Part shown: piece by piece, positions 28,443-54,985 of the stretch
Layout: every line of letters starts with the position of its first letter
Numbering within the stretch: position 1 is the stretch's first letter
DNA from: Klebsiella pneumoniae
GTDB taxonomy: Bacteria; Pseudomonadota; Gammaproteobacteria; Pseudomonadales; UBA5518
DNA: 64,000 bases
Reading direction: 5' to 3'
Assembly: GCA_945862145.1 (NCBI GenBank)
Contig: CAMAXE010000005.1
Location: 99,314-163,313, forward strand
The notes under the pieces: model-generated
What the model was told of the DNA's origin: nothing
Database searches by the model: none
The model's input: the letters and a program-made list of their open reading frames with translations, nothing else
Program-made: the position numbers and the translations under genes

Positions 28443-28484
28443 GGCGTATTCCTGTTGTTGCTCTGGAGAAGGGGCTGCGCGGCT

Positions 28485-33316: not shown

Positions 33317-33339
<23 letters not shown>
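32953..33339 (+). CDS. mshK: MshK-like small exported protein
   Basis: In-frame GTG 32953 overlaps the mshJ stop (the track ORF starts at 32881). Signal 'LAVAACLAACLAGGHALPAWS'. C-terminal 'RRVAVINGKVVRVGDEVDGATITGI' resembles MshK. Confidence 0.65.
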
Positions 33340-35089
<1,750 letters not shown>

Positions 35090-35119
35090 GACACGCGGAC
35101 ACAACACCCGGCATCGCTC

Positions 35120-36064
35120 ATGTACCTACAGCATTTCCGGTTGAACGAGCTGCCCTTCACCCTAACGCCGGACACGGCGTTCTTCATGGGCAGCGCAGGC
35201 TATCGCGACGCGCTGAACGTGTTGTTGGTGGCGCTGCGCAGCGGTGAGGGCTTCACCAAGGTGGTCGGCGAAGTCGGCACGGGCAAGACGCTGCTCTGCC
35301 GCACACTCCTGAAAACACTGACACCCGAGTTCCATATCGCCTACCTGCCCAACCCGTATCTGCGACCCTCGAGCCTGCTGCTATCGATCGCCGACGAACT
35401 AGGGATCAAATACCCCAAACGCGCCAGCCAGCACGAATTGCTGAGCCGCATAAACGACGGACTGCTGGCCTCGCACACGGAAGGACGGCGAGTGGCGCTG
35501 TGCATGGACGAAGCCCAAGCGGTGCCCCTGCAGACGCTGGAGACGCTGCGCCTGCTGACCAATCTCGAGACCGAAAAGACCAAGCTGCTGCAGGTGGTTC
35601 TTTTCGGCCAGCCCGAATTGGACAAAGTGCTCGACGACCCCGCCATCCGCCAGCTGCGCCAACGCATCACCTTCAGCTACCAGCTGCAGCCGATGGGCCG
35701 TGAAGGCGTGGAGGAATACCTGCGGCACCGACTCGCCGTGGCCGGCTACGACGGTCCGCGACTCTTTGACTCCCGAGCGGTGGATCTCATCTACCGAGGC
35801 AGCGGTGGCGTTCCGCGCCTGATCAACATCCTGGCGCACAAGTCCCTGATGGCCGCCTTCGGTGAGGGGGAAGCTCGGGTGGGCAAGGTCCACGCGCGTC
35901 GCGCAGTGGAGGATACCGATGATGCCCGCTCGGTCACGAGGACCGGTGTCAGCGTGTTGTCTTGGCTGAAGCGGCTCTGGAGCCGCTTTGCAGGCCTGTT
36001 CGGCGCCATCGCCGCAATCGGGATCGCTCTCGAGCTGCGACACCTCTCAGGGTTGATCGGATGA
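35120..36064 (+). CDS. mshM: MshM, ExeA-like AAA ATPase
   Basis: Walker A 'GEVGTGKT' and Walker B 'VALCMDEAQ'. N-terminus 'FRLNELPFTLTPDTAFF' typical of ExeA/MshM. Confidence 0.85.
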   Translation: MYLQHFRLNELPFTLTPDTAFFMGSAGYRDALNVLLVALRSGEGFTKVVGEVGTGKTLLCRTLLKTLTPEFHIAYLPNPYLRPSSLLLSIADELGIKYPKRASQHELLSRINDGLLASHTEGRRVALCMDEAQAVPLQTLETLRLLTNLETEKTKLLQVVLFGQPELDKVLDDPAIRQLRQRITFSYQLQPMGREGVEEYLRHRLAVAGYDGPRLFDSRAVDLIYRGSGGVPRLINILAHKSLMAAFGEGEARVGKVHARRAVEDTDDARSVTRTGVSVLSWLKRLWSRFAGLFGAIAAIGIALELRHLSGLIG

Positions 36065-37215
36065 GCCTGATCAACCGCATGCTGACCGACCTTGAGGAGC
36101 GTCGGGGCGGCAACCTTCGCAACGTCGATCACGCGCTGGACGGCCTGCGACCCACCTCGGGCGGGCCGCCGAAGTCTCGCCCGCGAAGCCGTCGGGGGAG
36201 CGCGGCCGCCATTGCCGTCATCGCCGTGCTGGCCGCGCTTTCAACCTATATTTTCCTGCGCGTTGATGCCGCCGTTGCCCCCGCGCCGACCGTGACTGAG
36301 ACCGCCGCACGCAGCGACAACGCCGCGGCTCCCGCAACCGCCCAAGCCCCTGCGCAACCGCCTGCCGTTACGCCCCCAGCCGCAGCAACGGGAGAGCAAT
36401 CCGTAGCGGTCGTCCTGAATGATGTTCCCCGTAAAGCCGTGACGGATGAGCCACAACCCGCGGCGCCCGTTACACCAGTGGAGGAGCCGGCGCCGATGCC
36501 CGGGGCCACGCAGGAAACCACAGCAGCCACACCATCACCGCCTGCCGTGGCAACACCGAAACCCATGCTGTCCCAGCCGAACACCGAAGAGCACCGCGAG
36601 CCGCTGGTGAACACCTCACCAAAATCCGACGCCAGGCGCTCGGGTAGTCGCAAGGCGGAGCGCTCCACCGCGACAAACAGCACAAACCCCGCCCCCGCAA
36701 CGCAAGTCGAGAGTGAGGGCAGCTTCTTCCTTGCCGATGCCGCACCGCCGACCGGCGCCGCCGACCGGGCAATTACCATGCTGGAAGAGGGCGACACCGA
36801 AGGCGCCGAAGCAATGCTGCGCGAGGGCCTGGCCACGGCGCCCGGCGACACCTCCATGGCGCGGGTGCTGGGGCATATCCTGCTCGCGCGCAACGATGCG
36901 TCCGGCGCGGTGCAGGCACTGCGCCCCGCGGCGCCCACACTGGAGTCAGATCCCGATTACCACGCGTTGCTGGCAGCGGCCGAGCAGCGCAGCGGCGCAC
37001 ACGGCGCGGCCATCCGCCGCTACCGCGAGCTGCTCCGGCTGCAGCCGGCCAACGGACCGTGGCTCGCAGGACTGGGGATCTCGCTGCAGGCGAGCGGCGA
37101 TGAGCCCGGCGCGGCAGAGGCGTTCCGCAAGGCGCTGGCAGATCCTGCACTGCCGCCACCGCTACACGATTTCGCCATGCAGCAGGCAATGCAGATCAAG
37201 GAGCGGCAGCCGTGA
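36061..37215 (+). CDS. mshN: MshN, TPR-repeat pilus biogenesis protein
   Basis: ORF 35962-37215. ATG 36061 overlaps the mshM stop (ATGA). N-terminus 'MSLINRMLTDLEERR', one TM helix, an Ala/Pro-rich linker and C-terminal TPR-like repeats. Confidence 0.75.
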   Translation: MSLINRMLTDLEERRGGNLRNVDHALDGLRPTSGGPPKSRPRSRRGSAAAIAVIAVLAALSTYIFLRVDAAVAPAPTVTETAARSDNAAAPATAQAPAQPPAVTPPAAATGEQSVAVVLNDVPRKAVTDEPQPAAPVTPVEEPAPMPGATQETTAATPSPPAVATPKPMLSQPNTEEHREPLVNTSPKSDARRSGSRKAERSTATNSTNPAPATQVESEGSFFLADAAPPTGAADRAITMLEEGDTEGAEAMLREGLATAPGDTSMARVLGHILLARNDASGAVQALRPAAPTLESDPDYHALLAAAEQRSGAHGAAIRRYRELLRLQPANGPWLAGLGISLQASGDEPGAAEAFRKALADPALPPPLHDFAMQQAMQIKERQP

Positions 37216-38990
37216 ACATAGCCCGCAAGAAGCTGCGCCTCGGCGATCTTCTGGTCGAAAGCAAGATCATCTCGCAACTCCAACTGGACACCGCACTGGA
37301 GGAACAGCGCAAGCTCGGCCGCAAGCTTGGGCGGATACTGGTCGACAAGGGTTATCTCACCGAGGACGGCCTGCTCTCTTTCCTGTCGCGCCAGCTCGCG
37401 GTGCCCTTCGTCGAGCTGAGCCACTACCAGTTCGAGCCCGCGGTGATTGCCCTGCTGCCCGAGATCTACGCCCGGCGGTTCCGCGCCATCGCCCTGAAAG
37501 ACAAGGGCGACTCGCTGCTGCTCGGGATGTCCGATCCCACCAACCTGTTCGCCTATGACGAGCTAGCGCGCATCATTGGCCGACCGATCGACATAGCCGT
37601 GGTGCGCGAGCAGGAACTGCTCGACATCATCGAGCGCGTCTACAAGCAGACCGATCGTATCAGCGGTATCGCCGAACAATTGAGCGACGAGCTCCGGGAA
37701 GGGGATTTCGACGTCGCGCAGCTCGCGGCGGATGCCGACCTCAGCGAAGCACCGGTGGTGAAGCTGCTGCACACGCTGTTCCAGGCCGCCGTGCAGGCGC
37801 GCGCCTCGGACATACACATCGAGCCCGATGAATCGGTGCTGCGCATCCGTCAGCGCATCGATGGCGTGCTGCTCGAGCAGGTGCTGAACGAACGCCGCAT
37901 CGCGCCGGCGCTGGTGCAGCGGCTGAAGCTGATGTCACAGCTCGATATCGCCGAAAAACGCCTGCCGCAGGATGGCCGTTTCAGCATCAAGGTGGGCGAC
38001 CGCCTGATCGACGTCCGTGTCTCCACCATGCCCCTGCAACACGGCGAATCCGTGGTGATGCGTCTGCTCGACCACCGCGAGGGTGTGAAGGATCTCGATG
38101 CCCTCGGCATGCCGGCCAATATCCTGCGCCGCTTCATGACGTCCATCCGCCGGCCCCACGGCATGGTGGTGGTGACCGGGCCCACCGGCAGCGGCAAGAC
38201 CTCCACGCTCTATTCAGCGCTCAAGCTGCTGAACGAGGCACGCTCGAAGATCGTCACCGTGGAAGACCCCGTGGAATACCGCCTGCCGCGCGTCAACCAG
38301 ATCCAGGTGAACCCGCAGATAGGCCTCACCTTCGCGCGCGTGCTGCGCACCACCTTGCGACAGGATCCCGACATTATCCTGGTGGGCGAAATGCGTGACC
38401 AGGAAACCGTGGAGATAGGTCTGCGGGCTGCCATCACGGGCCACTTGGTGCTCACCACGCTGCACACCAATGACGCCATCAGCACCATCACCCGCCTGCT
38501 CGACATGGGTGCCCCGAACTATCTGCTCGCCTCGGCCCTGCACGCCGTGATCGCGCAACGGCTGGTTCGTAAGGTCTGCGACAACTGCGCGCAACCCGAG
38601 CAGCCTACCGGGGCCGCACTCGGCTGGCTGCGCCTGAAGACCGGTCAGCAGGAACCCACCGGACTGTGGCGGCATGGCACGGGCTGCCACCAGTGCAGCA
38701 ACACCGGCTACAGGGGTCGTGTTGGCATCTACGAGATGCTGGTGGTCAGCCCGGCAATGAGCACCGCGTTGGCGGCCGGCGACTTCGTGGGTTTTGCCGA
38801 ACTCGGACGCTCGAGCCCGGGGTACCGCTCGCTGGAGCTGGCCGCACTGGATCGCGCGGCCGAGGGCGTAACCAGCATAGAAGAAGCCATCCGCGTCGCT
38901 GCCGAAAGTCTGCTGGCCGGCGACGAGGGCGAAGATGAAGACCTGCTTCCCGCACCACACGCCCCGCTCGAGCCGGCTGAATTGACGTGA
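37212..38990 (+). CDS. mshE: MshE, GspE-family pilus extension ATPase with N-terminal MshEN (c-di-GMP-binding) domain
   Basis: Tandem 'RLGDLLV...LEEQ' and 'KLGRILV...LSRQ' motifs, Walker A 'GPTGSGKTST', Walker B 'ILVGEMRD', His box 'GHLVLTTLHTN', and tetracysteine 'CDNC...CHQC'. GTGA overlap with mshN. Confidence 0.9.
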   Translation: MNIARKKLRLGDLLVESKIISQLQLDTALEEQRKLGRKLGRILVDKGYLTEDGLLSFLSRQLAVPFVELSHYQFEPAVIALLPEIYARRFRAIALKDKGDSLLLGMSDPTNLFAYDELARIIGRPIDIAVVREQELLDIIERVYKQTDRISGIAEQLSDELREGDFDVAQLAADADLSEAPVVKLLHTLFQAAVQARASDIHIEPDESVLRIRQRIDGVLLEQVLNERRIAPALVQRLKLMSQLDIAEKRLPQDGRFSIKVGDRLIDVRVSTMPLQHGESVVMRLLDHREGVKDLDALGMPANILRRFMTSIRRPHGMVVVTGPTGSGKTSTLYSALKLLNEARSKIVTVEDPVEYRLPRVNQIQVNPQIGLTFARVLRTTLRQDPDIILVGEMRDQETVEIGLRAAITGHLVLTTLHTNDAISTITRLLDMGAPNYLLASALHAVIAQRLVRKVCDNCAQPEQPTGAALGWLRLKTGQQEPTGLWRHGTGCHQCSNTGYRGRVGIYEMLVVSPAMSTALAAGDFVGFAELGRSSPGYRSLELAALDRAAEGVTSIEEAIRVAAESLLAGDEGEDEDLLPAPHAPLEPAELT

Positions 38991-40213
38991 CCACCTACCA
39001 GTACCGCGGACGCGGTCGCCGCGGCGATCTGCTCGAGGGCGCGCTGGAGGCCGCCTCCACCGAGGCGGTGGCGCGCCAGTTGATGAACAGCGGCATCACC
39101 CCGATCGATATCAGCGAAGCCCGCCCGCGCGCGGACGTCTTTGAATCACTGCGTCGCCGGCGCGACCCGGTGGCGCCGGAACTCTCCGAGCTGGTGCTGC
39201 TCTCGCGGCAGATGTACACACTCATGAAAGCAGGGGTTCCGCTCGCGCAGGCACTGCTCGGTCTGGCCAGGTCAAACCGCAACAATATGCTCCGCGAGGT
39301 ACTGGAGAACGTCAAAGCCACCGTGGAAGGCGGCCGCGAGCTGTCGGCAGCACTCGCCCAGCACCCGAAGATATTCTCGTCGCTCTACGTAAACACGGTG
39401 AAAATCGGCGAGAACACGGGGCGGCTGGACGAGGCGTTCCTGCGGCTCTCGGAGTATCTCGACCGAGATCGTGATACGCGCAGCCGCATCAAGACGGCCC
39501 TGCGCTACCCCTCCTTCGTGCTCGTGGCGATCTCCATCGCCATCGGCGTGATCAACGTGATGGTGATCCCGCAATTTGCCAAGATCTTCGAGCGCGCACA
39601 TGTCGCGCTCCCGCTGCCCACCCGGCTCATCATCGGCACGTCCAATTTCTTCGTGAGCTGGTGGCCGGCGTTGATAGCGCTCGCCATAGGGGCTGCGGTG
39701 GGATTCCAGGTCTGGCGCCGAACTGAGGAAGGCACCTACCGCTGGGACGGGTTCAAGCTGCGGATTCCCATCGTCGGCGACATCATCTACCGGGCCACAC
39801 TGGGCCGCTTTGCGCGGGGGTTTGCGATGGCACTGGCGGCCGGCGTACCCCTCACGCAGGCGCTCTCGATCATGGCGCAGGCAGTGGACAACGAGTACAT
39901 CGGCGAACGGATCCGCAATATCCGCACGGGCGTCGAGCGCGGCGAGTCTCTGACCCGCACTGCTACGGCCACTGGCATGTTCACGCCGCTGGTACTGCAA
40001 ATGCTTGCGGTGGGGGAGGAAGCCGGGGCCATCGACACCCTGCTAACCGAGGTCGCAGGTTTCTACGAGCGGGAAGTAGATTATGACGTCAAGAACCTGA
40101 GTCAGGCGATCGAGCCCATCCTGATCGCGGTGCTGGCGGGTTTTGTGCTGATTTTTGCCTTGGGGGTCTTCCTGCCTTTGTGGGACCTGGCACTGGTGAA
40201 GACGAAGGGCTGA
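38987..40213 (+). CDS. mshG: MshG, GspF/PilC-family platform protein
   Basis: 408 aa, with the duplicated GspF domain architecture and three hydrophobic segments. GTGA overlap with mshE. Confidence 0.9.
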   Translation: MTTYQYRGRGRRGDLLEGALEAASTEAVARQLMNSGITPIDISEARPRADVFESLRRRRDPVAPELSELVLLSRQMYTLMKAGVPLAQALLGLARSNRNNMLREVLENVKATVEGGRELSAALAQHPKIFSSLYVNTVKIGENTGRLDEAFLRLSEYLDRDRDTRSRIKTALRYPSFVLVAISIAIGVINVMVIPQFAKIFERAHVALPLPTRLIIGTSNFFVSWWPALIALAIGAAVGFQVWRRTEEGTYRWDGFKLRIPIVGDIIYRATLGRFARGFAMALAAGVPLTQALSIMAQAVDNEYIGERIRNIRTGVERGESLTRTATATGMFTPLVLQMLAVGEEAGAIDTLLTEVAGFYEREVDYDVKNLSQAIEPILIAVLAGFVLIFALGVFLPLWDLALVKTKG

Positions 40214-40254
40214 GAGATACGCGTGCCGAGGCCGGAAAAAATACCGGCTTGGTG

Positions 40255-40270
40255 CGGCATTCAGCGAGCA
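40255..40270 (+). promoter_or_regulatory. Possible sigma-54 (-24/-12) promoter for the pilin block
   Basis: CGGCAT-TCAGC-GAGCA versus consensus TGGCAC-N5-TTGCA. The GG (40256-57) and GC (40268-69) dinucleotides are at the correct 12-nt offset, about 48 nt upstream of the pilin GTG. Weak match. Confidence 0.25.
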
Positions 40271-40317
40271 CCGTGCTAGTATCAAATCCGGCTCATGAAC
40301 CATGGCGAGGTTTCTGC

Positions 40318-40761
40318 GTGCAACGTCAATCCGGTTTTACCCTGATCGAACTCATCACCGTGATCGTGATCCTCGGCGTACTCGCCGCCTTCGCGGTCCC
40401 GCGGTTCTCCGGTCTGGAGACCCAAGCCCGCATCTCCGCCGTCAACGCACTGGCCGGCAGCGCCCGCAGCGGGGCGGCGTTGGCGCATGCAATCTGGCTC
40501 GCCAACGGCGCGGCGAGCAATGCCTCCGTCACCATGGAAGGTTCGACGGTAGCCATGACCTTCAGCTACCCCTCGGCCCTGTCGACCGGCATAGAAGCAA
40601 CCCTGCAGGACATCACGGGGTTCACTGGCGCGGTGGTCGGCTCTACTTACGTTTTCAGCTTCACCGCGGCACCCACCGCTGCCAATTGCAAGGTCACGTA
40701 TACCCCGGCGGCCTCTCTCACGACCGCGCCAAGCTTTAGCACCACGACCGGCGGGTGCTGA
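40318..40761 (+). CDS. mshA: MshA-like type IVa major pilin, paralogue 1
   Basis: In-frame GTG 40318 inside ORF 40180-40761. Leader MQRQSG|FTLIELITVIVILG with Glu5. Cys pair 'ANC...GGC*' reaches the C-terminus. Confidence 0.85.
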   Translation: MQRQSGFTLIELITVIVILGVLAAFAVPRFSGLETQARISAVNALAGSARSGAALAHAIWLANGAASNASVTMEGSTVAMTFSYPSALSTGIEATLQDITGFTGAVVGSTYVFSFTAAPTAANCKVTYTPAASLTTAPSFSTTTGGC

Positions 40762-40792
40762 TAGGCACACCTCCAAACGACACCCCGCTCCG

Positions 40793-41311
40793 TTGGCAGC
40801 GCAGGTTCGTTTCGAACTGTGCCGCGGCCGCTCGGGTGGCGCGCGTAGCGACGGCGGCTTCACTCTGGTAGAACTGGTCACCGTGATGGTGATTGCAGGT
40901 ATCCTTGCCGCGGTGGCCAGTCCCAGGTTTTTCTCCAACGACAGCTTCAAGATCGCCGGCTTCGCAGGAGAGGTGCGCTCGGGACTGCGCCATGCACAGG
41001 CCGTGGCCATGGCTTCGGGCTGCGATATCCGGGTGTCTCTGGGATCGAGCGACTTCGTGCTGCAGCGCTGGTCGGGGGGCTTGGGCTGCAATGACCACAG
41101 CGGATCGCTGGTCACCCTGACACGCCCTGGCGGAGGGAGTTTCCTGGCCAGCGTGCCCGCGAACGTCTCCATCGGCACCGCAAACGTTTATTTCGACAGC
41201 ATGGGCAAGCCCCACGATGCGGCTTCGGGCGCGCTGCTCGGTTCAGCGCTGTCGCTTGCCATCGGCACCGACACCATCACGGTCAACGCCGAAACGGGCT
41301 TCGTCCAGTGA
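40793..41311 (+). CDS. mshC: GspH/FimT-like minor pilin (MshC-like)
   Basis: 'GG|FTLVELVTVMVIAGILA' prepilin N-terminus followed by a GspH-type 'FAGEVRSGLRHAQAVAMASG' region. TTG start gives an unusually long 22-aa leader, so the start is uncertain. Confidence 0.7.
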   Translation: MAAQVRFELCRGRSGGARSDGGFTLVELVTVMVIAGILAAVASPRFFSNDSFKIAGFAGEVRSGLRHAQAVAMASGCDIRVSLGSSDFVLQRWSGGLGCNDHSGSLVTLTRPGGGSFLASVPANVSIGTANVYFDSMGKPHDAASGALLGSALSLAIGTDTITVNAETGFVQ

Positions 41312-41871
41312 GAGGCCCCGGATCCCAGCGCGGACTCACTTTCATAGAACTGATCGCCAGTATCGTCATCATCTCGGTGGCTACCATCGGGCTCATGGCA
41401 GCCGTATCGGCAGCGGTAGGCCGCAGCGCCGACCCCCTGATCCAGATCCAGGCGACTGCCATTGCCGCAGCCTACCTGGAGGAGGCTACCCTCGCGCCGC
41501 TCTGCGACCCTTCCTATGGTCCCGACGGCAACGCCTCCACCACCTGTCGCGACGAGTGCACCACCAGCCCCTGCAGCGGCGGCTGCGGCGGCGCGATCTT
41601 CGGCGCCGAAACCGGGCGCTCCTCGTTTGACGACGTCTGCGACTACAGCGGCCTGCGCGACAGCGGCGCCAAGGACCGCCAGGGCGCGGCACTGAGCGGC
41701 CTGTCCGGCTACACGGTGAATGTCTCGGTGCTGGACGGCAGCAGCGTCTCGCTGGGCAGCCCGGCCCTTAGCGCCACCGCAGGGCGGGTGGTGCGGCTAG
41801 AGGTTCAGGTGTCTAATCCGGGCCTTAACTCCCCGATCACCCTCGTCGGCTACAAGGCAAACCTCGAGTGA
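41308..41871 (+). CDS. mshD: Minor pilin, MshD-like
   Basis: 'RG|LTFIELIASIVI' prepilin N-terminus. Cys-rich central segment. GTGA overlap. Confidence 0.7.
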   Translation: MRGPGSQRGLTFIELIASIVIISVATIGLMAAVSAAVGRSADPLIQIQATAIAAAYLEEATLAPLCDPSYGPDGNASTTCRDECTTSPCSGGCGGAIFGAETGRSSFDDVCDYSGLRDSGAKDRQGAALSGLSGYTVNVSVLDGSSVSLGSPALSATAGRVVRLEVQVSNPGLNSPITLVGYKANLE

Positions 41872-42764
41872 GGCACGCAGCGGGAAGCACGGCGCGCGGA
41901 TTCACGCTGATCGAACTGGTCACGGTGATCACGCTGAGTGCGATCCTGAGCGTGGTGGTGTGGCGTAACATCAGCCTGCCCATAAGGGCGTTTTCCGATA
42001 TCACACGCCGCGCGGAAACAGTAGCAACCGCCCAACTGGCCATGGAACGAATGGCTCGTGAAATCCGCCTTGCGCTGCCTAACAGTCTGCGGGTATCGGG
42101 AGACGGCTCGGCCATCGAACTGCTGCGCACGTCATCAAGCGGGCGCTATCGCGCCGAGCTGAATCCGAGCGACGCCGCCTCCGACGCGCTTAACCTCAGT
42201 GCCAGCAGCGACACCTTCCAGGTGCTCGGAAGCTGGAGCATGCCAGCCGGCCTGCGCACCGGTAGCGGGCTGCCCCAATGCCTTGCGGGTACGGCCGATT
42301 GCCTCGCGATCTACAACACCGGAAGTCCCGCAACCTGCAGCAGCCAGACAGCGGGCACACGCACCAATGCGTGGTGCGGCGACAATCTGGCTGGCATCCT
42401 GAGCGCCAATTCGACAACCGGCGTGGTATCTGCAAGTCGCGCCTCGGCAGGCACCGCATGGCCGACCGGTTCACCGCAGCAACGCTTTTACGTGGTCGAT
42501 ACGGCGCTCAGCTTCGTCTGCGCCGACGGCATGCTGCGCCGATATTCGGGTTATGCCATTGCCAGCACCCAGCCGGTGCCGCCTGCCGTGACCGGGGCGC
42601 TGCTCGCCGATCACATCGGCGCCTGCACCTTTAGCTACGAGGCTGGCAGTGCATCGCGCGCGGGGCTGTTATCCATCCAGCTGACCCTGTCCTACTCGAC
42701 GCCCGACGAAACCACCGAACAGTTATCCCTGCTCGAACAAGTACACGTGCCCAACTCGCCATGA
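41868..42764 (+). CDS. mshO: Minor pilin/biogenesis protein, MshO-like
   Basis: 'RG|FTLIELVTVITL' prepilin N-terminus. 298 aa; size and position match mshO. GTGA overlap. Confidence 0.7.
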   Translation: MRHAAGSTARGFTLIELVTVITLSAILSVVVWRNISLPIRAFSDITRRAETVATAQLAMERMAREIRLALPNSLRVSGDGSAIELLRTSSSGRYRAELNPSDAASDALNLSASSDTFQVLGSWSMPAGLRTGSGLPQCLAGTADCLAIYNTGSPATCSSQTAGTRTNAWCGDNLAGILSANSTTGVVSASRASAGTAWPTGSPQQRFYVVDTALSFVCADGMLRRYSGYAIASTQPVPPAVTGALLADHIGACTFSYEAGSASRAGLLSIQLTLSYSTPDETTEQLSLLEQVHVPNSP

Positions 42765-43171
42765 ACAGCCCAAAGTACCCGCGGGGATTCTCCCTGGTCT
42801 CGGCCGTATTCCTGCTGGTCGTAGTAGCACTTATCGCGGGCTATGCCGTGTCGATCGGCACCTCGCAGCAGGCGGACAGCTCGCTCGCGCTGCTGGGCAA
42901 GCGAGCAGACTTTGCGGCGCGCAGCGGTCTCGAATGGGCCATCGCCCGGGTCCTGCAGGACAGCAGCTGTCCCCCAAGCGGCACGACGTTCTCCCCTGCG
43001 GGCACCGGAATCGGCAATTTCGTGGTGTCAGTGAGCTGCAGTTCGACGACGGTGTCCGAGGGCGCGAGCACCTACCCTGTTTACAGCCTGGGCGTGACTG
43101 CGACCCTGGGCAGCGAGGGTACCGAGGACTTCGCGAGACGCAGCCTGAGCGCCCAGGTGAGCGGTACCTGA
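42761..43171 (+). CDS. mshP: MshP-like protein (pilin-like N-terminus lacking Glu5)
   Basis: 'PRG|FSLVSAVFLLVVVALIAG'. 136 aa. ATGA overlap with the preceding gene. Confidence 0.6.
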   Translation: MNSPKYPRGFSLVSAVFLLVVVALIAGYAVSIGTSQQADSSLALLGKRADFAARSGLEWAIARVLQDSSCPPSGTTFSPAGTGIGNFVVSVSCSSTTVSEGASTYPVYSLGVTATLGSEGTEDFARRSLSAQVSGT

Positions 43172-43262
43172 AAAAGTCCCTGCGCTTGACGCTGCCGTGG
43201 CTGGCCTTCCCGCAAATCAGTGCTATTCTTCACTTAATCAATCTGCCTAGGAGATCGCTTCC

Positions 43263-43703
43263 GTGCAACGTCAGTCTGGCTTCACGCTCATAGAACTTAT
43301 CACTGTCATCGTCGTACTCGGCATTCTTGCCGCGTTCGCCATCCCGCGATTCGCGGGCCTCGAAACGCAAGCCAGGATAGCAACCGTCAAAGGGATGGCA
43401 GGAGCGGTCAAAAGCGGTGCGGCACTTGCCCATGCACTGTACATCGTTGACGGCAGCAACCCCGCGACCGTCACGATGGAAGGCCAAGCGGTCGCTATCG
43501 TCAATGGCTACCCCTCCGATGCGGTAGCGGGGATCGTGAAAACCATACAGGACACCACAGGCTTTACCTCGGCAGCAAATAGCAACGGCTGGCTCTTGTC
43601 CTTCACGAATGCACCGACCGCGGCCACCTGCTCGGTTGAATACATAGAACCTGCGGCACTCAACACGCCGCCCACGGTTACCATTCTCGACGGCGGCTGC
43701 TAA
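43263..43703 (+). CDS. mshA: MshA-like type IVa major pilin, paralogue 2
   Basis: GTG start 9 nt after AGGAG. Same leader as paralogue 1 (MQRQSG|FTLIELITVIVVLG) and same '...TC...GGC*' Cys pattern. More A/T-ending codons, including four ATA Ile codons. Confidence 0.85.
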   Translation: MQRQSGFTLIELITVIVVLGILAAFAIPRFAGLETQARIATVKGMAGAVKSGAALAHALYIVDGSNPATVTMEGQAVAIVNGYPSDAVAGIVKTIQDTTGFTSAANSNGWLLSFTNAPTAATCSVEYIEPAALNTPPTVTILDGGC

Positions 43704-43996
43704 AGGCTCACTGTCGGAGCTATCCAGCGGCAGCGTTGAGCTGTCGCTGGTGGCGGCCAGACAGGTTTGCACTCGACTCAAGCCAATTCCCTGCCCTCGC
43801 CTTTTGCCCACTACGCGCTTTGAATTGTTGCCGACGCAGGTCTGTTGAGCTGCGCTGCTCGTATTTCCCATCGAAGCCAGAAATCAAGGCGAACGGTTCG
43901 GCAGGAATTCTGGCCGCGCCAGCGGAGCCCCCGCTAAATTGCCCCGCCCCGCCCACGCCCGTATGATTCTCGGCTCGTTAACGGGGATCACCGCAC

Positions 43997-46900
43997 ATGC
44001 TTTCGCTCGCTTTCGGCCTGCAGTTCACCGACCTCTACGCGCGTGACGGCCTGCTGCGAATTGACCAGGCTTTCCTCGAGCACCTGGCGGCCGCGGACGC
44101 ATCCCTCCGGGACACCCTGCGGGGTGCCCGACAGGCGCCTGCAGCGCTCGCCCGCAAGGCCGAATCCGAACTCCTGATCGCGCTCGCCTCGCATTTGGAA
44201 GACTTCATCGCGCGGCTCTTTGGTATCGAGTCCGAAGCACGCGCACTGGCCGCGACTCACCACGCACTCGCCCCGCTCTACACCGTGAAGCGGCTCTTCG
44301 TGCAGCGCTTCGCACTCACGAAAATCAAGGAAGCCGATCTGGCCGGATTTGATCCGGAAGCTACGCGCACGTCGCTCTTTGGTACGGATTTCAGCGAACT
44401 GGGGTTTGCCCATCAGGTGCTCGTCTGGCAACGGGACGAGACGGCCAACGCCGCCGAACTCGGTCTTGCCGCACGCTATGCCGCATGGGCCGCAGGCACG
44501 GCCGCAGGACGTGCCCTGCACGGCCAAGGCGTGCTGTTCAAGGCGCCCAAAAAACTGGATCACCAGCGACTGGTGCCGCTGGTCACCGAGGAAACTCTCG
44601 GCTTCTCCCGTCACAGCCTGGAACACACACGCCGGCGCGAGGGCTTTGCACTCACCGATGAAGGCACGGATCTGGCCGGGGCGCTGGACGAGGCGAACTA
44701 CTGCATCTGGTGCCACGAGCAGGGTCGCGATTCCTGCTCCAGCGGCCTGCGCGAGAAAGCCGCCAAGGGCGCCCCGCCCGAGAGCGCGCCCTTCCGCAAG
44801 AGCCCCTTCGGCGTGACGCTCGCGGGCTGCCCGCTCGAGGAAAAAATCTCCGAATTCCACCTGGTGAAGACCCGCGGCGAACCGCTCGCGGCGCTGGCGA
44901 TGATCGTGGTGGATAACCCGATGGCAGCCGCCACCGGGCACCGCATCTGTAACGACTGCATGAAGTCCTGCATCTACCAGAAACAGGATCCGGTCAACAT
45001 CCCGCAGGCCGAGACCCGCACGCTCAAAGACGTGCTAGAACTGCCCTGGGGCTTCGAGATTTACTCGCTGCTCACACGCTGGAATCCGCTCAATATCCAC
45101 CGCCCCGTGCCGCTGCCAGACAGCGGCCGCAAGGTGCTGGTCGTGGGCCTGGGGCCGGCGGGTTTCACGCTGGCGCATCACCTGATGAACGACGGCCATA
45201 CGGTGCTCGGCATCGACGGTCTGAAGATCGAGCCACTGGAGCCGGAGCTCTCGGGCGTGGGCGGCACGGGGCGCACACCCTTTGTGCCAGTGCATCGCAT
45301 CGAGGACCTGCGCGAACCGCTCGATGCGCGCGTGATGGCGGGTTTCGGCGGCGTTGCCGAATACGGCATCACGGTGCGCTGGGACAAGAACTTCCTGAAG
45401 CTGGTGCGGTTGCTGGTGGAGCGACGCGAGCAGTTCGCGATGTTCGGCGGCGTGCGCTTCGGCGGCACGCTCACCGCAGACGACGCCTGGCGCATGGGCT
45501 TCGACCACATCGCGCTCTGTATCGGCGCGGGCGGTCCCACGGTGCTCGACATACCCAACGGTCTGGCGCGCGGCGTACGCGCGGCATCGGATTTCCTGAT
45601 GGCGCTGCAGCTGACCGGTGCGGCCAAGCAGGATTCCATCGCCAACATGCAACTGCGCCTGCCTGTGGTGGTGATTGGCGGTGGACTCACTGCCATCGAC
45701 ACCGCCACCGAATCGCTCGCCTATTACGTGGTGCAGATCGAGAAATTCTTGGCCCGCTACGAGACGCTGGCACGGGAAAACAGCGAGGAATCCGTGCGCG
45801 CAAGCTGGGATGACTACGAGCGTGAGATCGCCGAGGAATTCCTCGCCCATGCGCGCGCCATCCGCCAGGAACGCGCGCAGGCCGCCACCCAGGGGCGCAA
45901 TGCGCGGGTGGTCGAGATGCTGCGCCACTGGGGTGGGGTGACCATCGCCTACCGGCGGCGTCTGATCGACAGCCCCTCCTACACGCTGAATCACGAGGAA
46001 GTCGAGAAGGCGCTGGAGGAAGGCATCTGGTTCGCCGAGGGGCTGAGTCCCACCGGCGTCGACGTTGACCACTATGGCGCGGCCCGCGGCATACGCCTGA
46101 AGAACGGCCAGACCGGCACCGAGCACTGGTTCCCTGCACGCACGGTATTCGTGGCCGCAGGCACGCAGCCCAACACCGTGCTCGCGCGCGAATTCCCCGG
46201 CAGTTACACGCTGGACAGAAAGTACTTCGCGGCGGTCGACGAAGCGGGTCATCCGGCAAAACCCGAGAAAGGCGCGGCCAAACCTGCCACCCCGCAGGTG
46301 CTCATGAAGCGCGAGCCTGACGGGCGCTTCATCAGCTACTTCGGTGACGTGCACCCCAGCTACTTCGGCAATGTCGTCAAGGCGATGGCTTCCGCCAAAC
46401 AGGGCTATCCGGTGGTCTCACGCGCGCTCGCCGGCCGTACACCGCAGGCAGCCACAGGTGGCGTGGAATTCCTCGCCGCTTTCGGGCCACAGTTGTTGGC
46501 GACGGTGCACCATGTCGAGCGGCTGACGCCCACCATCGTCGAGGTGGTGGTGCACGCACCGCTCGCGGCAGCCCGCTTCCAGCCCGGGCAGTTTTACCGC
46601 CTGCAGAATCTCGAAAACCGGGCGCCGGCAATCGATGGCACCCGCTTGCAGATGGAAGGCCTCGCCATGACCGGCGCCTGGGTCGACCGCGAGCAAGGGC
46701 TGGTGTCGGTGGTCGCGCTGGAGATGGGCGGCTCGAGCAACCTTTGCGCGATGCTCCAGCCCGGTGAGCCGGTGATTCTGATGGGCCCCACCGGAGCGCC
46801 CACCGAGATCGAACCCAACGAGACCGTGCTGCTCTGCGGCGGCGGTCTTGGCAATGCGGTGCTGTTCTCGATCGGCGCGGCATTCCGCGCCGCGGGCTCG

Positions 46901-47473
46901 CGGGTGCTCTACTTCGCCGGCTACAAGAAAGTGCAGGACCGCTACAAGGTGGCCGAGATCGAGGCCGCCGCGGACATCATCGTGTGGTGCTGCGACGAGG
47001 AACCCGGCTTTGCCCCCTCCCGGCCGCGGGACCACAGCTTTGTGGGCAATATCGTGCAGGCCATGGACAGCTATGCCGAGGGCCGCCTCGGCGACATCCC
47101 GATCCGTTTCGAGGACGTCGACCGCATCATCGCCATCGGCTCCGATCGCATGATGGCCGCAGTGGCTCGCGCGCGACACGAGGTGCTGAAACCGCGCCTC
47201 AAGCCCCACCATTTCGCAGTGGGCTCCATCAATTCACCCATGCAGTGCATGATGAAAGAGATCTGCGCACAGTGCCTGCAGCCGCACCGCGACCCGATCA
47301 CCGGCGAGACCAGCTACGTCTTCTCCTGCTTCAACCAGGATCAGGAACTCGACAAGGTCGACTGGAAAGTACTGAACGAGCGGCTGCGGCAGAACTCACT
47401 CGGAGAGAAGCTCACCGTGCAGTGGCTGCGGCACTGCATGCCCGAGGCACGGGCACAGCGGAGTTTCGTGTGA
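43997..47473 (+). CDS. Large multidomain iron-sulfur flavoprotein: unique N-domain + GltD/NfnB-like + PyrK/NfnA-like modules
   Basis: 1158 aa. Cys clusters 'CIWCHEQGRDSC', 'GCP' and 'CNDCMKSC'. Rossmann folds 'VLVVGLGPAGFTLAHHL' and 'VVVIGGGLTAIDTA'. C-terminal 'FQPGQFYRL', 'LLCGGGLGNAVLFSIG' and 2Fe-2S-type 'CMMKEICAQC...FSC'. Confidence 0.85.
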   Translation: MLSLAFGLQFTDLYARDGLLRIDQAFLEHLAAADASLRDTLRGARQAPAALARKAESELLIALASHLEDFIARLFGIESEARALAATHHALAPLYTVKRLFVQRFALTKIKEADLAGFDPEATRTSLFGTDFSELGFAHQVLVWQRDETANAAELGLAARYAAWAAGTAAGRALHGQGVLFKAPKKLDHQRLVPLVTEETLGFSRHSLEHTRRREGFALTDEGTDLAGALDEANYCIWCHEQGRDSCSSGLREKAAKGAPPESAPFRKSPFGVTLAGCPLEEKISEFHLVKTRGEPLAALAMIVVDNPMAAATGHRICNDCMKSCIYQKQDPVNIPQAETRTLKDVLELPWGFEIYSLLTRWNPLNIHRPVPLPDSGRKVLVVGLGPAGFTLAHHLMNDGHTVLGIDGLKIEPLEPELSGVGGTGRTPFVPVHRIEDLREPLDARVMAGFGGVAEYGITVRWDKNFLKLVRLLVERREQFAMFGGVRFGGTLTADDAWRMGFDHIALCIGAGGPTVLDIPNGLARGVRAASDFLMALQLTGAAKQDSIANMQLRLPVVVIGGGLTAIDTATESLAYYVVQIEKFLARYETLARENSEESVRASWDDYEREIAEEFLAHARAIRQERAQAATQGRNARVVEMLRHWGGVTIAYRRRLIDSPSYTLNHEEVEKALEEGIWFAEGLSPTGVDVDHYGAARGIRLKNGQTGTEHWFPARTVFVAAGTQPNTVLAREFPGSYTLDRKYFAAVDEAGHPAKPEKGAAKPATPQVLMKREPDGRFISYFGDVHPSYFGNVVKAMASAKQGYPVVSRALAGRTPQAATGGVEFLAAFGPQLLATVHHVERLTPTIVEVVVHAPLAAARFQPGQFYRLQNLENRAPAIDGTRLQMEGLAMTGAWVDREQGLVSVVALEMGGSSNLCAMLQPGEPVILMGPTGAPTEIEPNETVLLCGGGLGNAVLFSIGAAFRAAGSRVLYFAGYKKVQDRYKVAEIEAAADIIVWCCDEEPGFAPSRPRDHSFVGNIVQAMDSYAEGRLGDIPIRFEDVDRIIAIGSDRMMAAVARARHEVLKPRLKPHHFAVGSINSPMQCMMKEICAQCLQPHRDPITGETSYVFSCFNQDQELDKVDWKVLNERLRQNSLGEKLTVQWLRHCMPEARAQRSFV

Positions 47474-47483
47474 GAAGGCCACG

Positions 47484-47960
47484 CTGATAGCCGGGAAAAC
47501 CCGCAAGGGCGTCCGCGCCGTTGCCCTGCTCGAGCTCACCAAGGGCATCCTCGCGTTGCTGGCGGGCGCAGGGCTGCTCTCGGCACAGCACCCGGGGATG
47601 CGCCGCGCGCTGCTCGACATCGCCCAGCATGCGCACCTCAATCCGGCGCACGAGCATCCCAGCGTCTTCATGCAGGCGGCCAACACGCTCACCGATCGCC
47701 ATCTGCTGATGATGGCAGCAGGCGGACTGCTGTACGCCTCGGTGCGGTTCACCGAGTCCTACGGGCTCTGGTTCGAGCGACGCTGGGCCGAGTGGTTGGC
47801 GGCACTGAGCGGCGCCGTCTACATCCCCTTCGAGATCGTGGAGATCTGGCGCGAGGTGAGCTGGGTGAGCTTGGGCGTTTTGGGCGTGAACGTGCTGATC
47901 GTGGGCTACATGTCCTGGGTGCTCTACCGCTCGCGGGCGCTCGCCGCGGCGCAGGTCTGA
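47484..47960 (+). CDS. DUF2127-family membrane protein
   Basis: The track ORF starts at TTG 47556, but the conserved first helix ('GVRAVALLELTKGILALLAG') lies upstream in the same frame. The only candidate start there is CTG 47484, so the start is uncertain. 'RWAEWLAALSGAVYIPFEI' is typical of the family. Confidence 0.65.
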   Translation: MIAGKTRKGVRAVALLELTKGILALLAGAGLLSAQHPGMRRALLDIAQHAHLNPAHEHPSVFMQAANTLTDRHLLMMAAGGLLYASVRFTESYGLWFERRWAEWLAALSGAVYIPFEIVEIWREVSWVSLGVLGVNVLIVGYMSWVLYRSRALAAAQV

Positions 47961-49941: not shown

Positions 49942-50232
49942 TCAGCGGCGTTGCCACCAGGGGCGGGCACACGCAGGCAAAGCGGGCACCACTGCGAGGT
50001 TCTCGTGGTAGAGCACCTCGGTAAAGGCGCTCACCGCGAACTTGCTCGCATTGTAGGCGCCAACACCGAGCATGGGCAGCCAGCCGGCAAGCGAGGAGAA
50101 ACTGATCAAATCACCGGCGCCGCGCGCGACCTTGGCCGGTAACGCCGCCTGTGCGGCCATCATCCGGCAGGCGAGACGCCCCATGCCGCTCCCGGCTCCC
50201 GTCACCAGAACAATACGTCCCCGCATTGCCAT
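49942..50232 (-). pseudogene. Remnant of a classical SDR gene (internal deletion and truncated 3' end)
   Basis: 96-aa ORF. 'IVLVTGAGSGMGR' cofactor motif is followed after only ~35 aa by the active-site region 'SSLAG...YNASK', where intact SDRs have ~130 aa between them. The usual C-terminal third is absent. Confidence 0.6.
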
Positions 50233-50375
50233 CTGCCTGCTGCCCCCCTGCGGTTGCGAGTGCGAGTCTACGCTACCCGCCGCAACCGCGGTGCGGGGCG
50301 CTTTTTCGCCCCGCTGCAGTGCCGCTGTCGTACACTGATCTTGGCTCGCAAACCCGCACCCCGACCGGAGACACG

Positions 50376-51197
50376 ATGAATCTGATGACCTGGATCGCCC
50401 GCCTGCTGCGGAGCGTGATCGGGCTGGCGCTGCTGGCCTTCAGCCTCGTGAGCGCGGTGATCATCGCCGTGGTGGTGTTCATCGGCGGCATCCTGCTCGC
50501 GCTCTCTGTCGGCCGCGGTCGCGGCCCTTGGCGCACGGTGATGCGCGACGCGAGCGCCGCCCGTAAAACCTTCTTCGAGACCGCCTTCCGGCTAATGGGC
50601 CGCATCGCCAAGAGCGATGGGCACATCAGCGAGGAGGAAATCGCGCTCACCGAGCAGCTGATTTCACGGCTTGGGCTGACACCGGACCATCGCCAGGAAG
50701 CCATCGGGCACTTCAAGCGCGGTGCCGACCCTGCCTTCGACATCGACGCCCAGCTCCGCGAGTTCGGCATTCACTGCGGCAAGCACCCGAATCTACGGCA
50801 GATGCTGATGGTGTTTCTGTTCAACACGGCCATTGCTGATGGCAGCATTTCCCCGGACGAACATGCGCTGCTGCGGCGCATCGCACTCGGGATCGGTTTC
50901 GCGGAGCAGCAATTCGAGCAGCTGCTGCGGATGTTCACGGCCCAGGAACAGTTTGCCGGCGGCGGCAGTGGAGCGCCACGCACCAATGCGCTCGCAGAAG
51001 CCTATGCCGCGCTGGGCGTCGAGGCGAGCGTCAGCGATCGCGACGTGAAGCACGCCTACCGCAAGCTGATGAGTCAGTACCATCCCGACAAACTGATCGC
51101 CGAGGGCATGCCCGAGGATATGGTGCGCATGGCGACCGAACGCACGCAGGACATACAGAACGCCTGGGAGCCGGTGCGCAAGGCGCGCGGACTCTGA
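50376..51197 (+). CDS. djlA: Co-chaperone DjlA (TM helix, TerB-like domain, C-terminal J domain)
   Basis: ORF 50151-51197, ATG at 50376. 'GRIAKSDGHISEEEI' TerB-like repeats. J domain 'AYRKLMSQYHPDK'. Confidence 0.85.
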   Translation: MNLMTWIARLLRSVIGLALLAFSLVSAVIIAVVVFIGGILLALSVGRGRGPWRTVMRDASAARKTFFETAFRLMGRIAKSDGHISEEEIALTEQLISRLGLTPDHRQEAIGHFKRGADPAFDIDAQLREFGIHCGKHPNLRQMLMVFLFNTAIADGSISPDEHALLRRIALGIGFAEQQFEQLLRMFTAQEQFAGGGSGAPRTNALAEAYAALGVEASVSDRDVKHAYRKLMSQYHPDKLIAEGMPEDMVRMATERTQDIQNAWEPVRKARGL

Positions 51198-53662: not shown

Positions 53663-54085
53663 TCAGTCCGCGGCGGCCGCTGCCGCAAGGCGCGCGTACA
53701 GCGCCTTCAGGGCATCGGCATCGCGCTTGATCATCGCCTTGATCTGCAAGCCGCTCTCGAAATGGCCCGGCGCCAGCCCCGGGGAACTCCAACGCACCTG
53801 CACGCCTATGCGAGCGTGGTGAGCGGGATCCTCAGGGGTGGAGCAGTCGATCAGCAGATCGAGGGCCATCCCGTTGCGCAGCGCCCCGGCGCTCTCGAGG
53901 CGCAGTCCTGTCTCCGAGAGATCGAGAATGCGACCGAGCTCATCACGGGTAGTGGTATCGAGAACCTTGGTCCTTGCCCGCGGCCGGCGCCTCGCGCTGC
54001 TGCGCCGCTGCTCGCCGGTGAGGGCGGCGGGCGCCGGCACGGCTGCCGCAACTGTTACCGGCTTCTTGCTCGCACGCTTGGCCAT
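53663..54085 (-). CDS. PilZ-domain protein (putative c-di-GMP receptor)
   Basis: 'RRSSAR' (RxxxR) followed ~24 aa later by 'DLSETG' (DxSxxG), the two PilZ signature motifs. 140 aa. Confidence 0.7.
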   Translation of the reverse strand: MAKRASKKPVTVAAAVPAPAALTGEQRRSSARRRPRARTKVLDTTTRDELGRILDLSETGLRLESAGALRNGMALDLLIDCSTPEDPAHHARIGVQVRWSSPGLAPGHFESGLQIKAMIKRDADALKALYARLAAAAAAD

Positions 54086-54146: not shown

Positions 54147-54974
54147 TCACGCGCGGTTCAGATAACCAGTGAGGGGATCGCCACCGCGGTAGGACCCCAG
54201 CGCGTCGATGAAAAGATGAAACAGCTCCGCCTGCGAGGAGACATCGAGCTTGGCGTAACTGTGCTTGCGGTGGAGCTTCACAGTCTCCGGAGATATTCCC
54301 AGCCGTGCGGCGATCGACTTGGTGGAATGTCCGCGCAACAGCAGCTGGATCACCTCGGTTTCGCGGTCGGTGAGAAAATCCCGGCCAAAGAACTTGAGTG
54401 CGGAATCGAGCTGCGTGGTGAGCATCCGGTTGCCGCCGGGCTCAGGCGGCGCCCAGTGACGGCGCAGGAGTTCATCGACCAGCGGCTGGAAATCCAGCAG
54501 TAACCGGTAGTCAGCCGCACTGAAGCGTGCGCTTGCGCCACGCACCCCGAGCGAGAGGTGCACGCAACTGCCGCCCGCGTCCGGCACCAGATAGCCGATC
54601 TCGTCGGCGATGCCGGTGCGCGCAAAGTGCAAGCGGAAGTACTCCGAGGAACGGAAAGCGCTCGGCGCCAGCTGCTGCAACCGGTAGCAGCCCGGAGCCA
54701 CGCCATCGGCGAAAGCGCGGTAGAAAGGGTCGAGCAGATAGGCACCCTTCAGGTAGGTCGCCAGGTTGACAGCGGCCTGCGGCCCCGCGCTGAGATCATG
54801 CGCCAGTTCGGGCGCGAGGCCATGGCGGTAGAGCACCACCATCACGTCATCGGCAGGCACCAGCGCCCGCAGCGCCCGCACCAGCCCGCCCACCAGCGCA
54901 GGCGTGCCGGCCTCGCGCACAACACTGGCGAGTGCATCTCCGAGCGCACGGTGATCGGGCTTGGTGTCGCGCAA
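54147..54974 (-). CDS. LuxR/FixJ-type HTH transcriptional regulator with an uncharacterised N-terminal domain
   Basis: ORF 54147-55349. TTG 54974 lies 6 nt after AGAGGG and 12 nt downstream of the OPT stop. C-terminal HTH 'TDRETEVIQLLLRGHSTKSIAARLGISPETVKLHRKHSYAKL'. Confidence 0.75.
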   Translation of the reverse strand: MRDTKPDHRALGDALASVVREAGTPALVGGLVRALRALVPADDVMVVLYRHGLAPELAHDLSAGPQAAVNLATYLKGAYLLDPFYRAFADGVAPGCYRLQQLAPSAFRSSEYFRLHFARTGIADEIGYLVPDAGGSCVHLSLGVRGASARFSAADYRLLLDFQPLVDELLRRHWAPPEPGGNRMLTTQLDSALKFFGRDFLTDRETEVIQLLLRGHSTKSIAARLGISPETVKLHRKHSYAKLDVSSQAELFHLFIDALGSYRGGDPLTGYLNRA

Positions 54975-54985
54975 CTGCGGCCCTC

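Follow-up and report, generated by a model that had tools for sequence, protein, structure and literature searches.

The gene and its family

The window analysed here is a 64,000-nucleotide stretch of contig CAMAXE010000005.1 (positions 99,314 to 163,313, forward strand) of assembly GCA_945862145.1, which is named Klebsiella pneumoniae and carries a GTDB lineage in the Pseudomonadales (UBA5518). The gene in question is an uninterrupted open reading frame (ORF) of 1158 codons on its plus strand, from an ATG at 43997 to a stop codon ending at 47473. We propose that it encodes a single-chain iron-sulfur flavoprotein of the Nfn type (Nfn, NADH-dependent ferredoxin:NADP oxidoreductase) belonging to the RP005/PRK06567 family, a reading which, with the Nfn-like electron-donor mechanism included, we place slightly below even odds (about 0.45). 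A previous reading of this DNA, made from the letters alone and referred to below as the sequence-only reading, had described a single 1158-amino acid polypeptide in which a GltD/NfnB-like module is joined to a PyrK/NfnA-like module behind a unique, cysteine-rich N-terminal domain. The single polypeptide is borne out, and the peptides quoted from it are all present (VLVVGLGPAGFTLAHHL at residues 380–396, VVVIGGGLTAIDTA at 557–570, FQPGQFYRL at 861–869, and LLCGGGLGNAVLFSIG at 945–960). That reading was largely right on the modules, and wrong on the unique cysteine-rich domain and on the uniqueness of the protein.

A protein database search (E ≤ 1e-10) returned at least 8000 homologues, with full-length identities as high as 97% among the matches listed, and a genome scan located 596 loci encoding homologues. 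On these grounds the ORF is certainly a genuine gene, the match being far beyond chance, and the protein is one member of a large family rather than unique. Homologues are present in Nitrosomonas, Nitrosospira, Nitrosovibrio, Gallionella, Nitrotoga and many 'Burkholderiales' metagenome-assembled genomes (MAGs), in gammaproteobacterial MAGs (the nearest, 77–97%), in alphaproteobacterial MAGs and on an Acidithiobacillus caldus plasmid. The NCBIfam model PRK06567 (NF005128) matches residues 3–959 with 779.6 bits; its 1072-bit equivalog cut-off is not reached, and by the NCBI threshold for this model the protein is a relative, not an equivalog. It shares with the family the same three-part architecture in one chain of ~1000–1200 amino acids, including the N-terminal domain RP005_N, and differs in being a long form (1158 amino acids against a profile of 1031 positions) with a larger and better-conserved NAD-type domain. 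The window protein is therefore a member of the large, catalogued RP005/PRK06567 family, and that family is a divergent Nfn-like enzyme.

The names glutamate synthase small subunit and 2-polyprenylphenol hydroxylase (UbiB), singly or together, are supported only by their use for PRK06567 and in JGI annotations. The 'UbiB' label here is one that we take to be the old COG0543 name for the FNR/PyrK fold and not to denote the hydroxylase. These annotations are contradicted by model scores that lie far under cut-off (TIGR01317, 59 against 447.7 bits; TIGR01318, 31 against 483 bits) and by the lack of any Glu_synthase/GltB gene among the annotated neighbours in the window or in the relatives, and we consider it highly improbable that they describe the function. 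The family is on record as a signature of Rickettsiales, a GltD-UbiB chimera present in nearly all of them (PMC3641634), and in Ehrlichia, which has a homologue and lacks GOGAT, that homologue was listed as a putative glutamate-forming enzyme (PMC4251998).

Domain architecture and predicted cofactor sites

The features of the gene are collected in Table 1. An AlphaFold2 model was built from an alignment of 77 diverse homologues, and the protein is predicted with confidence to be compact. The conservation given below for the [4Fe-4S] ligand candidates and for the GGGxG glycines also refers to 77 homologues; the cofactor ligands are conserved across those from Alpha-, Beta- and Gammaproteobacteria and Acidithiobacillia. 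Among Pfam models that the sequence-only reading had named for a search, Pyr_redox_2 matches residues 379–751 (1.2e-11), and Fer4_20, the 4Fe-4S domain of GltD and DPD, matches residues 276–339 with 23.2 bits, just under its 25.8-bit cut-off. The nearest solved sequences identified by phmmer are, for the centre of the protein, the Pyrococcus furiosus NfnI large subunit (NfnI-L, 5jca_L), Xfn, Thermotoga maritima NfnB (4ylf_B) and Bacillus subtilis GltD, and for the C-terminus T. maritima NfnA (4ylf_A, 1.8e-11) and the NfnI small subunit (NfnI-S, 5jca_S, 3.2e-11), with PyrK at 9e-3. Foldseek comparison with the PDB gives a concordant picture, with Xfn, NfnI and T. maritima NfnAB as the top fold matches for both halves. 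Template-modelling (TM) scores, with respect to the target, are 0.80 for Xfn (5vj7_A), 0.78 for NfnB (4ylf_B), 0.77 for NfnI-L and 0.72 for GltD in the core, and 0.85 for NfnI-S (5jca_S), 0.81 for NfnA (4ylf_A) and 0.78 for PyrK (5ksw_B) in the C-terminal module; the core also matches the folds of adrenodoxin reductase (ranks 23–27) and DPD. Both the two-Rossmann core and the PyrK/NfnA-like C-terminus are thus upheld by sequence and by fold, as is the fusion of the two modules, NfnAB, NfnI and Xfn being the nearest solved structures for both halves. Taken together, the conserved residues and the model show a GltD/NfnB-like part with predicted sites for two [4Fe-4S] clusters, NADPH and FAD, and a PyrK/NfnA-like part with predicted sites for a second FAD and a single [2Fe-2S] cluster, together with a Rossmann fold of the NAD(H) type.

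Table 1. Features of the RP005-family gene in the window (nucleotide positions in the window; aa, amino acid residues; pLDDT, predicted local distance difference test; pTM, predicted TM score).
Feature	Residues	Position	Strand	Basis
Complete ORF, RP005_N + GltD/NfnB-like + PyrK/NfnA-like	1158 aa	43997..47473	+	Domain matches; AlphaFold2 pLDDT 90.3, pTM 0.91
Sigma-70-like promoter match, TTGCCC-17-TATGAT, 30 nt 5' of ATG		43939..43967	+	Weak: 1 site against 0.8 expected from shuffles
RP005_N domain, Cys-free helical bundle, then beta-hairpin and linker	1–232	43997..44692	+	PF27156 in precomputed annotation
Two-[4Fe-4S] domain, GltD/NfnB/DPD type	233–345	44693..45031	+	Fer4_20 match; alignment to NfnI-L and B. 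subtilis GltD
FAD + NADPH two-Rossmann core	376–812	45122..46432	+	Pyr_redox_2; Foldseek; invariant columns
Putative helical-hairpin insertion of ~70 aa in the NADPH-binding Rossmann fold	578–645	45728..45931	+	AlphaFold2 helices 563–595 and 606–632; PDB alignments end before region
PyrK/NfnA-like module, FAD beta-barrel + NAD(H)-type Rossmann	835–1130	46499..47386	+	phmmer; Foldseek
[2Fe-2S] motif C1084-x5-C1090-x2-C1093-x17-C1111, all-Cys, PyrK-like		47246..47329	+	Four Cys invariant

The sequence-only reading had assigned the N-terminal ~330 residues to no family, and this region resolves into RP005_N and a two-[4Fe-4S] domain of the GltD/DPD type. The cysteines of the latter account for the groups (CxxCx7C, GCP and CxxCxxxC) that had been taken for a unique cysteine-rich domain; alignment to GltD and NfnI-L rules out such a domain, and by this alignment they are the predicted canonical GltD/NfnB cluster ligands with altered spacing. 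The candidate ligands C236, C239, C247, C278, C318, C321, C325 and E339 are all invariant. AGCPLEEKISEF aligns with 'GCPVHINIPGF' of NfnI-L and with SGCPIYNLIPEW of GltD, and ATGHRICNDCMKSC with 'ITGRVC..QCEGAC' of NfnI-L and the GltD segment FTG-x7-PCEGSC. The Nfn cluster motifs are RCx2Cx4Cx3CPV and GRVCPQExQCx3Cx13Gx2ER, and E339 aligns with the Glu of the '...Gx2ER' motif (PMC6405883). The corresponding motifs in the window are YCx2Cx7Cx30CPL and GHRICx2Cx3Cx13ETR, with all ligand positions present and a spacing unlike that of Nfn. In the core that follows, the invariant motifs are GxGxxG at 384–389 (FAD), GGG at 561–563 (NADPH domain), Y652-R653-R/K, and G783-D784 (FAD), and R461, a candidate counterpart of the Nfn Arg that contacts the flavin N5, aligns with the Arg in 'FRL' of NfnI-L, whose equivalent in B. 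subtilis GltD is Lys.

The C-terminal module contains an FAD barrel (PGQFYRL, 863–869, and E887-G-L-A-M-T892) and an NAD(H)-type Rossmann motif (LLCGGGLGNAVL, 945–956) whose GGGxG glycines are at least 90% conserved, and its segment LLCGGGLGNAVLFSIGAAFRAAGSRV matches LLVGGGVGIATLYPIAKALKEAGNNI of NfnA. The cysteine motif near its end is spaced Cx5CxxCx17C, and not Cx7CxxCx17C as the sequence-only reading had it.

An extra N-terminal domain does exist, as the sequence-only reading supposed, in residues 1 to ~230; it is not cysteine-rich, the cysteines sitting in the standard cluster domain. Precomputed Pfam annotation assigns PF27156 (RP005_N) to this exact protein and to all listed homologues (a match listed there unmarked has an E value of at most 1e-5). 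Its helices span residues 10–175, and the hairpin and linker after them, which are confidently predicted only in the full-length model, carry an invariant RxGFxLTD motif (214–221). In an exhaustive phmmer search of 1.84 billion representative proteins RP005_N gave 1166 matches, of which the long ones (1014–1195 amino acids) have the same architecture; the short ones resemble contig-end fragments, and P0255 and P0259 are truncated copies. The sole alternative architecture seen is that of P0124, a metagenomic protein of 556 amino acids in which an RP005_N-like N-terminus (11–243) is followed by pentapeptide repeats, and this could reflect a gene call that is chimeric or frameshifted.

RP005_N would serve as a docking or regulatory domain. 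A different use for it is conceivable, in which the protein acts like DPD, with the GltD-like and PyrK-like modules supplying electrons and RP005_N binding and reducing a small molecule. The domain has invariant polar residues (D23, R45, K98, R99, Y161, W164, R214, T220, D221 and D231) and is found almost only in this architecture, and GltD-like modules do feed catalytic domains in DPD, which is among the Foldseek matches, and in GOGAT. RP005_N is nevertheless all-helical, with no cysteine and no cofactor-binding motif, and it has no relative among PDB folds (best E = 5) and no similar solved enzyme fold; nor are metabolic pathway genes conserved nearby beyond ferredoxin-dependent systems. We regard a substrate-reducing role as improbable.

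Comparison with Nfn and other enzymes

The resemblance to Nfn extends over both modules, which have their best sequence and fold matches there. It includes seven Cys and one Glu as candidate ligands for two [4Fe-4S] clusters and the FAD and NADP(H) motifs with Y-R-R and, in the NfnA-like part, the FAD barrel, the GGGxG Rossmann motif, and the C-terminal [2Fe-2S] motif followed by a long helix. The differences are also substantial. The window protein is one chain in B-to-A order to which the 230-residue RP005_N is added; its third and fourth cluster cysteines are ~27 residues further apart (Cx2Cx7Cx30CP against Cx2Cx4Cx3CP in Nfn), and it has Cx2Cx3C in place of Cx5Cx3C and the putative helical insertion in the NADPH domain; and the identity is only ~20%, with hosts that are aerobic Proteobacteria.

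Fused Nfn homologues in B-to-A order, termed 'Pattern C' and uncharacterised, have been described (PMC6405883), and those of the Mobiluncus curtisii type share with the window protein both this order and a C-terminal a-FAD/NAD/[2Fe-2S] part. The models PRK12779 and PRK12775, taken to be of the Pattern C type by their shared B-to-A order, match the window protein weakly (89 and 78 bits); Pattern C proteins are ~200 amino acids shorter, and RP005_N is not described for them. GltD and the N-terminal half of DPD have the same Fe-S domain and FAD/NADPH core, but the window protein has no GltB or DPD catalytic partner, and the position of a Lys in B. subtilis GltD is occupied by Arg461. PyrK likewise shares the FNR-like fold and a C-terminal all-Cys [2Fe-2S] motif, although the match is weaker than to NfnA (9e-3 against 2e-11) and the cysteine spacing in the window is one residue longer; the PyrK model NF000799 gives 32 against 314 bits, and no pyrD gene is found nearby.

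Gene context in relatives

Ten loci carry fdxA, encoding a 7Fe ferredoxin (Fer4 plus DUF3470), directly upstream of the homologue on the same strand, with a gap of 5–140 bp in most. One of the ten is on the A. caldus plasmid pTcM1 (L081). There, the module (L081 3809–11483) encodes GntR, an AprA-like flavoprotein, a 4Fe-4S dicluster protein, a HEAT-repeat protein, FdxA and the RP005-family protein, beside a NitT/TauT-type (sulfonate) ABC transporter, and it looks like a mobile sulfur-assimilation cassette.

A second arrangement links the family to assimilatory sulfite reduction. In L088, L090 and L094, whose genomes have 41–56% GC and whose flanks differ, the RP005-family gene is the last in an operon of the order cysI-(sirohaem synthase, cysG')-cysH-cysD-cysNC, with gaps of at most 2 bp; cysJ is absent from the operon, and the CysI of these cys operons passes NF010029 (676 bits). 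In L056 and L064 the gene directly follows that for a NirA-family (ferredoxin-type) sulfite reductase, and in Nitrosomonadaceae the order is a NirA-like sir, cysH, cysD, cysN, the RP005-family gene, pntAA, pntAB and pntB. An adjoining pntA is found also in Nitrotoga (L060) and in L020. The NirA-family sulfite reductases beside the homologue in L017 and L064 (NIR_SIR proteins of 720–722 amino acids) extend ~150 residues beyond the typical length; NCBIfam matches stop at about residue 540 and leave a C-terminal extension unassigned. In L092 (5280–9270), which encodes a 1089-amino acid form, the homologue directly follows a Peptidase_A24 gene, whereas in L088 and L090 the cys operon lies between the two, as if in L092 the cys operon had been lost and the RP005-family gene kept.

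A third arrangement is seen for short-form members (L086 and L091/L093), in which COX15/CtaA is encoded divergently 30–120 bp away; L086 also has LytB/IspH 2 kb from the homologue. Yeast heme A synthase reportedly requires ferredoxin and ferredoxin reductase. Several of the neighbour arrangements are lineage-specific, so that each is one or a few evolutionary events. Even so, the arrangements point jointly to ferredoxin, to enzymes that depend on it and to the supply of NADPH. On this gene-context evidence the partner candidates can be narrowed to an FdxA-type ferredoxin and ferredoxin-dependent enzymes, which gives concrete and testable candidates.

The cys operons raise the question of whether the protein is a dedicated substitute for CysJ. 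It would then bind the siroheme-containing hemoprotein of sulfite reductase directly, by way of RP005_N or its distal cluster, and hand over six electrons from NADPH with no need for free ferredoxin. The terminal position in cysJ-less operons at gaps of 0–2 bp and the location directly 3' of NirA-type sulfite reductase genes are as would be expected for such a substitute, and other bacteria lacking cysJ use alternatives such as DUF2849 (bioRxiv 10.1101/072470). However, the near-universal presence of the family in Rickettsiales (PMC3641634), the many genomes with the gene beside ctaA or alone and with no adjacent cys gene, the L092 arrangement without a cys operon and the lack of cys genes in the window all argue against so narrow a role, and fdxA adjacency points to a soluble carrier. 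We consider such a dedicated function improbable.

A proposed mechanism

Because the two [4Fe-4S] clusters are invariant, a third redox partner is expected besides the two nucleotides, and we know of no logic other than that of Nfn for a cofactor set of NADPH, FAD, two [4Fe-4S], [2Fe-2S], FAD and NAD. The most economical reading is that the protein works like Nfn. In this scheme NADPH would reduce the central FAD of the GltD-like module by hydride transfer; one electron would then travel along the [4Fe-4S] pair, proximal cluster first and distal second, and reach a low-potential acceptor outside the protein, either an FdxA-type 7Fe ferredoxin or, directly, assimilatory sulfite reductase or heme A synthase. 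The other would go by way of the [2Fe-2S] cluster and then the second FAD, with NAD+ as its acceptor. In aerobes the enzyme would run Nfn 'backwards' (2 NADPH + NAD+ + 2 Fd(ox) → 2 NADP+ + NADH + 2 Fd(red), where Fd is ferredoxin), the NADPH-oxidising direction being favourable because the NADPH pool is reduced and the NAD pool oxidised, and PntAB, a gene neighbour in the nitrifiers, would recycle NADH to NADPH. That the protein is an NADPH-oxidising, Nfn-like donor of low-potential electrons in a single chain, possibly bifurcating, is a tentative conclusion at the probability given for the gene as a whole. Within this reading, true electron bifurcation is rather unlikely.

CysJ, plant-type FNR and adrenodoxin reductase would then be functional analogues in the role proposed for the window protein, the NADPH-driven delivery of single electrons to sulfite reductase, ferredoxins or heme A synthase. 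CysJ and FNR are unrelated to it in sequence and cofactor content, and all three lack both Fe-S clusters and a further nucleotide module.

A number of observations weigh against an Nfn-like mechanism. Judged by sequence, the protein is not an Nfn in the strict sense, since it departs in two defining motifs and in how its subunits are organised, the modules being fused in B-to-A order. The a-FAD strand ERxPxT of Nfn is EGxAxT here, with Glu and Thr kept and Arg and Pro replaced by Gly and Ala, a variant that is conserved in the family. The Asp-ligated [2Fe-2S] site is not kept either, the predicted ligands in the window being four invariant cysteines (Cx5Cx2Cx17C); in Nfn the motif is DGTGMCGxCRx10CV, with Asp as the first ligand, and this residue is responsible for the +80 mV potential that serves bifurcation (PMC6405883). 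The NAD(H) site may not be universal across the family, because in short-form relatives of 1014–1080 amino acids (P0181, P0195 and P0234) the glycine motif is degenerate and the NAD-type domain shorter. Xfn/NfnII of P. furiosus, structurally the closest match, reportedly does not use NAD+, and Nfn homologues are nearly confined to anaerobes, with one aerobe listed (PMC6405883). The context evidence comes entirely from relatives, since no ferredoxin, cys, pnt or ctaA genes lie in the window, and tblastn with FdxA gave nothing significant there. To our knowledge bifurcating flavoenzymes are almost without precedent in aerobes, and the RP005 hosts are aerobic. Finally, the literature searched contained annotation-level mentions only and no biochemical or genetic characterisation of any RP005-family member; by the same token it held no orthologue with a characterised, mundane function, an outcome that the sequence-only reading had allowed for.

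Many of these points favour a linear, non-bifurcating NAD(P)H:ferredoxin or hemoprotein reductase, in which NADPH, and maybe NADH by way of the PyrK-like module, are alternative inputs and single electrons exit along the row of Fe-S centres in the manner of FNR, adrenodoxin reductase and CysJ. The fdxA, sulfite reductase and CtaA contexts apply equally to such an enzyme. The all-Cys [2Fe-2S] motif and altered ERxPxT strand are unlike bifurcating Nfn, the core is structurally related to adrenodoxin reductase, the short forms have a degenerate NAD-type motif, the hosts are aerobic, and the closest structure is the NAD-independent Xfn. A linear reductase leaves unexplained the family-wide retention of a complete NfnA-like module, with GGGxG conserved in the clade of the window protein, and accounts less specifically for the adjacency of PntAB. 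We consider it the main rival, possible though doubtful.

By the sequence-only reading, the gene would encode a fused, Nfn-like electron-transfer enzyme that carries an additional substrate or partner domain and belongs to an organism with the look of an aerobic heterotroph. The modules, the extra domain and the aerobic look stand, the last from genes in the window for a GMC oxidoreductase, an aldehyde dehydrogenase, an acyl-CoA ligase, a thiolase and amidases; the likeness to Nfn does not extend to ERxPxT or the Asp-ligated [2Fe-2S] site. The subject has a wider bearing, in that Nfn-type bifurcation is regarded as a hallmark of anaerobes whereas the RP005 family is widespread in strict aerobes, and its retention in reduced Rickettsiales genomes suggests an important housekeeping role. 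If ferredoxin is reduced from NADPH by this family, this would explain how cysJ-less Proteobacteria feed their sulfite reductases, and would provide a donor for bacterial heme A synthase and a route to ferredoxin potentials in aerobes without Rnf or Fix. A still broader proposal is that the RP005 family, in Rickettsiales and nitrifiers as in other aerobic Proteobacteria, comprises oxygen-tolerant, single-chain, flavin-based bifurcating enzymes. From NADPH that the proton-driven transhydrogenase PntAB keeps reduced, these would drive NAD+ and FdxA reduction together and constitute the missing low-potential source for cysJ-less assimilatory sulfite reduction, heme A synthesis and other ferredoxin-dependent steps; we regard this as unlikely. 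The gene in the window simply adds to a family already catalogued, and no partner gene lies close to it.

The neighbourhood in the window

The gene is flanked on one side by an MSHA-type pilus cluster and on the other by DUF2127, DUF188/YaiI, SnoaL and epimerase genes. A DUF2127 protein is encoded downstream, at 47556–47960, as the sequence-only reading had noted in suggesting it as a possible conserved neighbour. When the 16 neighbours in the window were compared by tblastn with 81 homologous loci (within 8 kb of the homologue) no match was found, although a control with the protein itself worked. Since none of the 16 recurs, with DUF2127 at 0 of the 81 loci, DUF2127 is ruled out as a partner. 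Between the ORF and the DUF2127 gene no plus-strand terminator was found, and the two may or may not be co-transcribed; in the window, the RP005-family gene probably forms a transcription unit by itself, with a promoter of its own.

A relative that is 77% identical retains only the DUF188 and epimerase genes, further downstream. In this relative (L083/L084 5338–7839) the homologue is directly preceded by a Peptidase_M2 and a Hexapep gene. The window also contains a Peptidase_M2 gene (angiotensin-converting-enzyme family, 703 bits; 26607–28442, minus strand), 15.5 kb upstream of the ORF. Because Peptidase_M2 and Hexapep directly adjoin the homologue in the relative, the pilus cluster (~28400–43700) looks like an insertion between Peptidase_M2 and the RP005-family gene. 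This cluster encodes an MshEN/T2SSE ATPase, T2SSF, TPR and AAA proteins and five N_methyl pilins. A minus-strand ORF of 213 amino acids at 43230–43871 is probably spurious, since it has no Pfam match and public gene calls place a 146-amino acid N_methyl pilin on the plus strand there (43263–43703). Further downstream lie genes for a TerB-DnaJ fusion (50151–51197, plus strand), a PilZ-domain protein (53663–54085, minus strand) and a LuxR-type regulator (54147–55349, minus strand), which are unrelated to the RP005-family gene.

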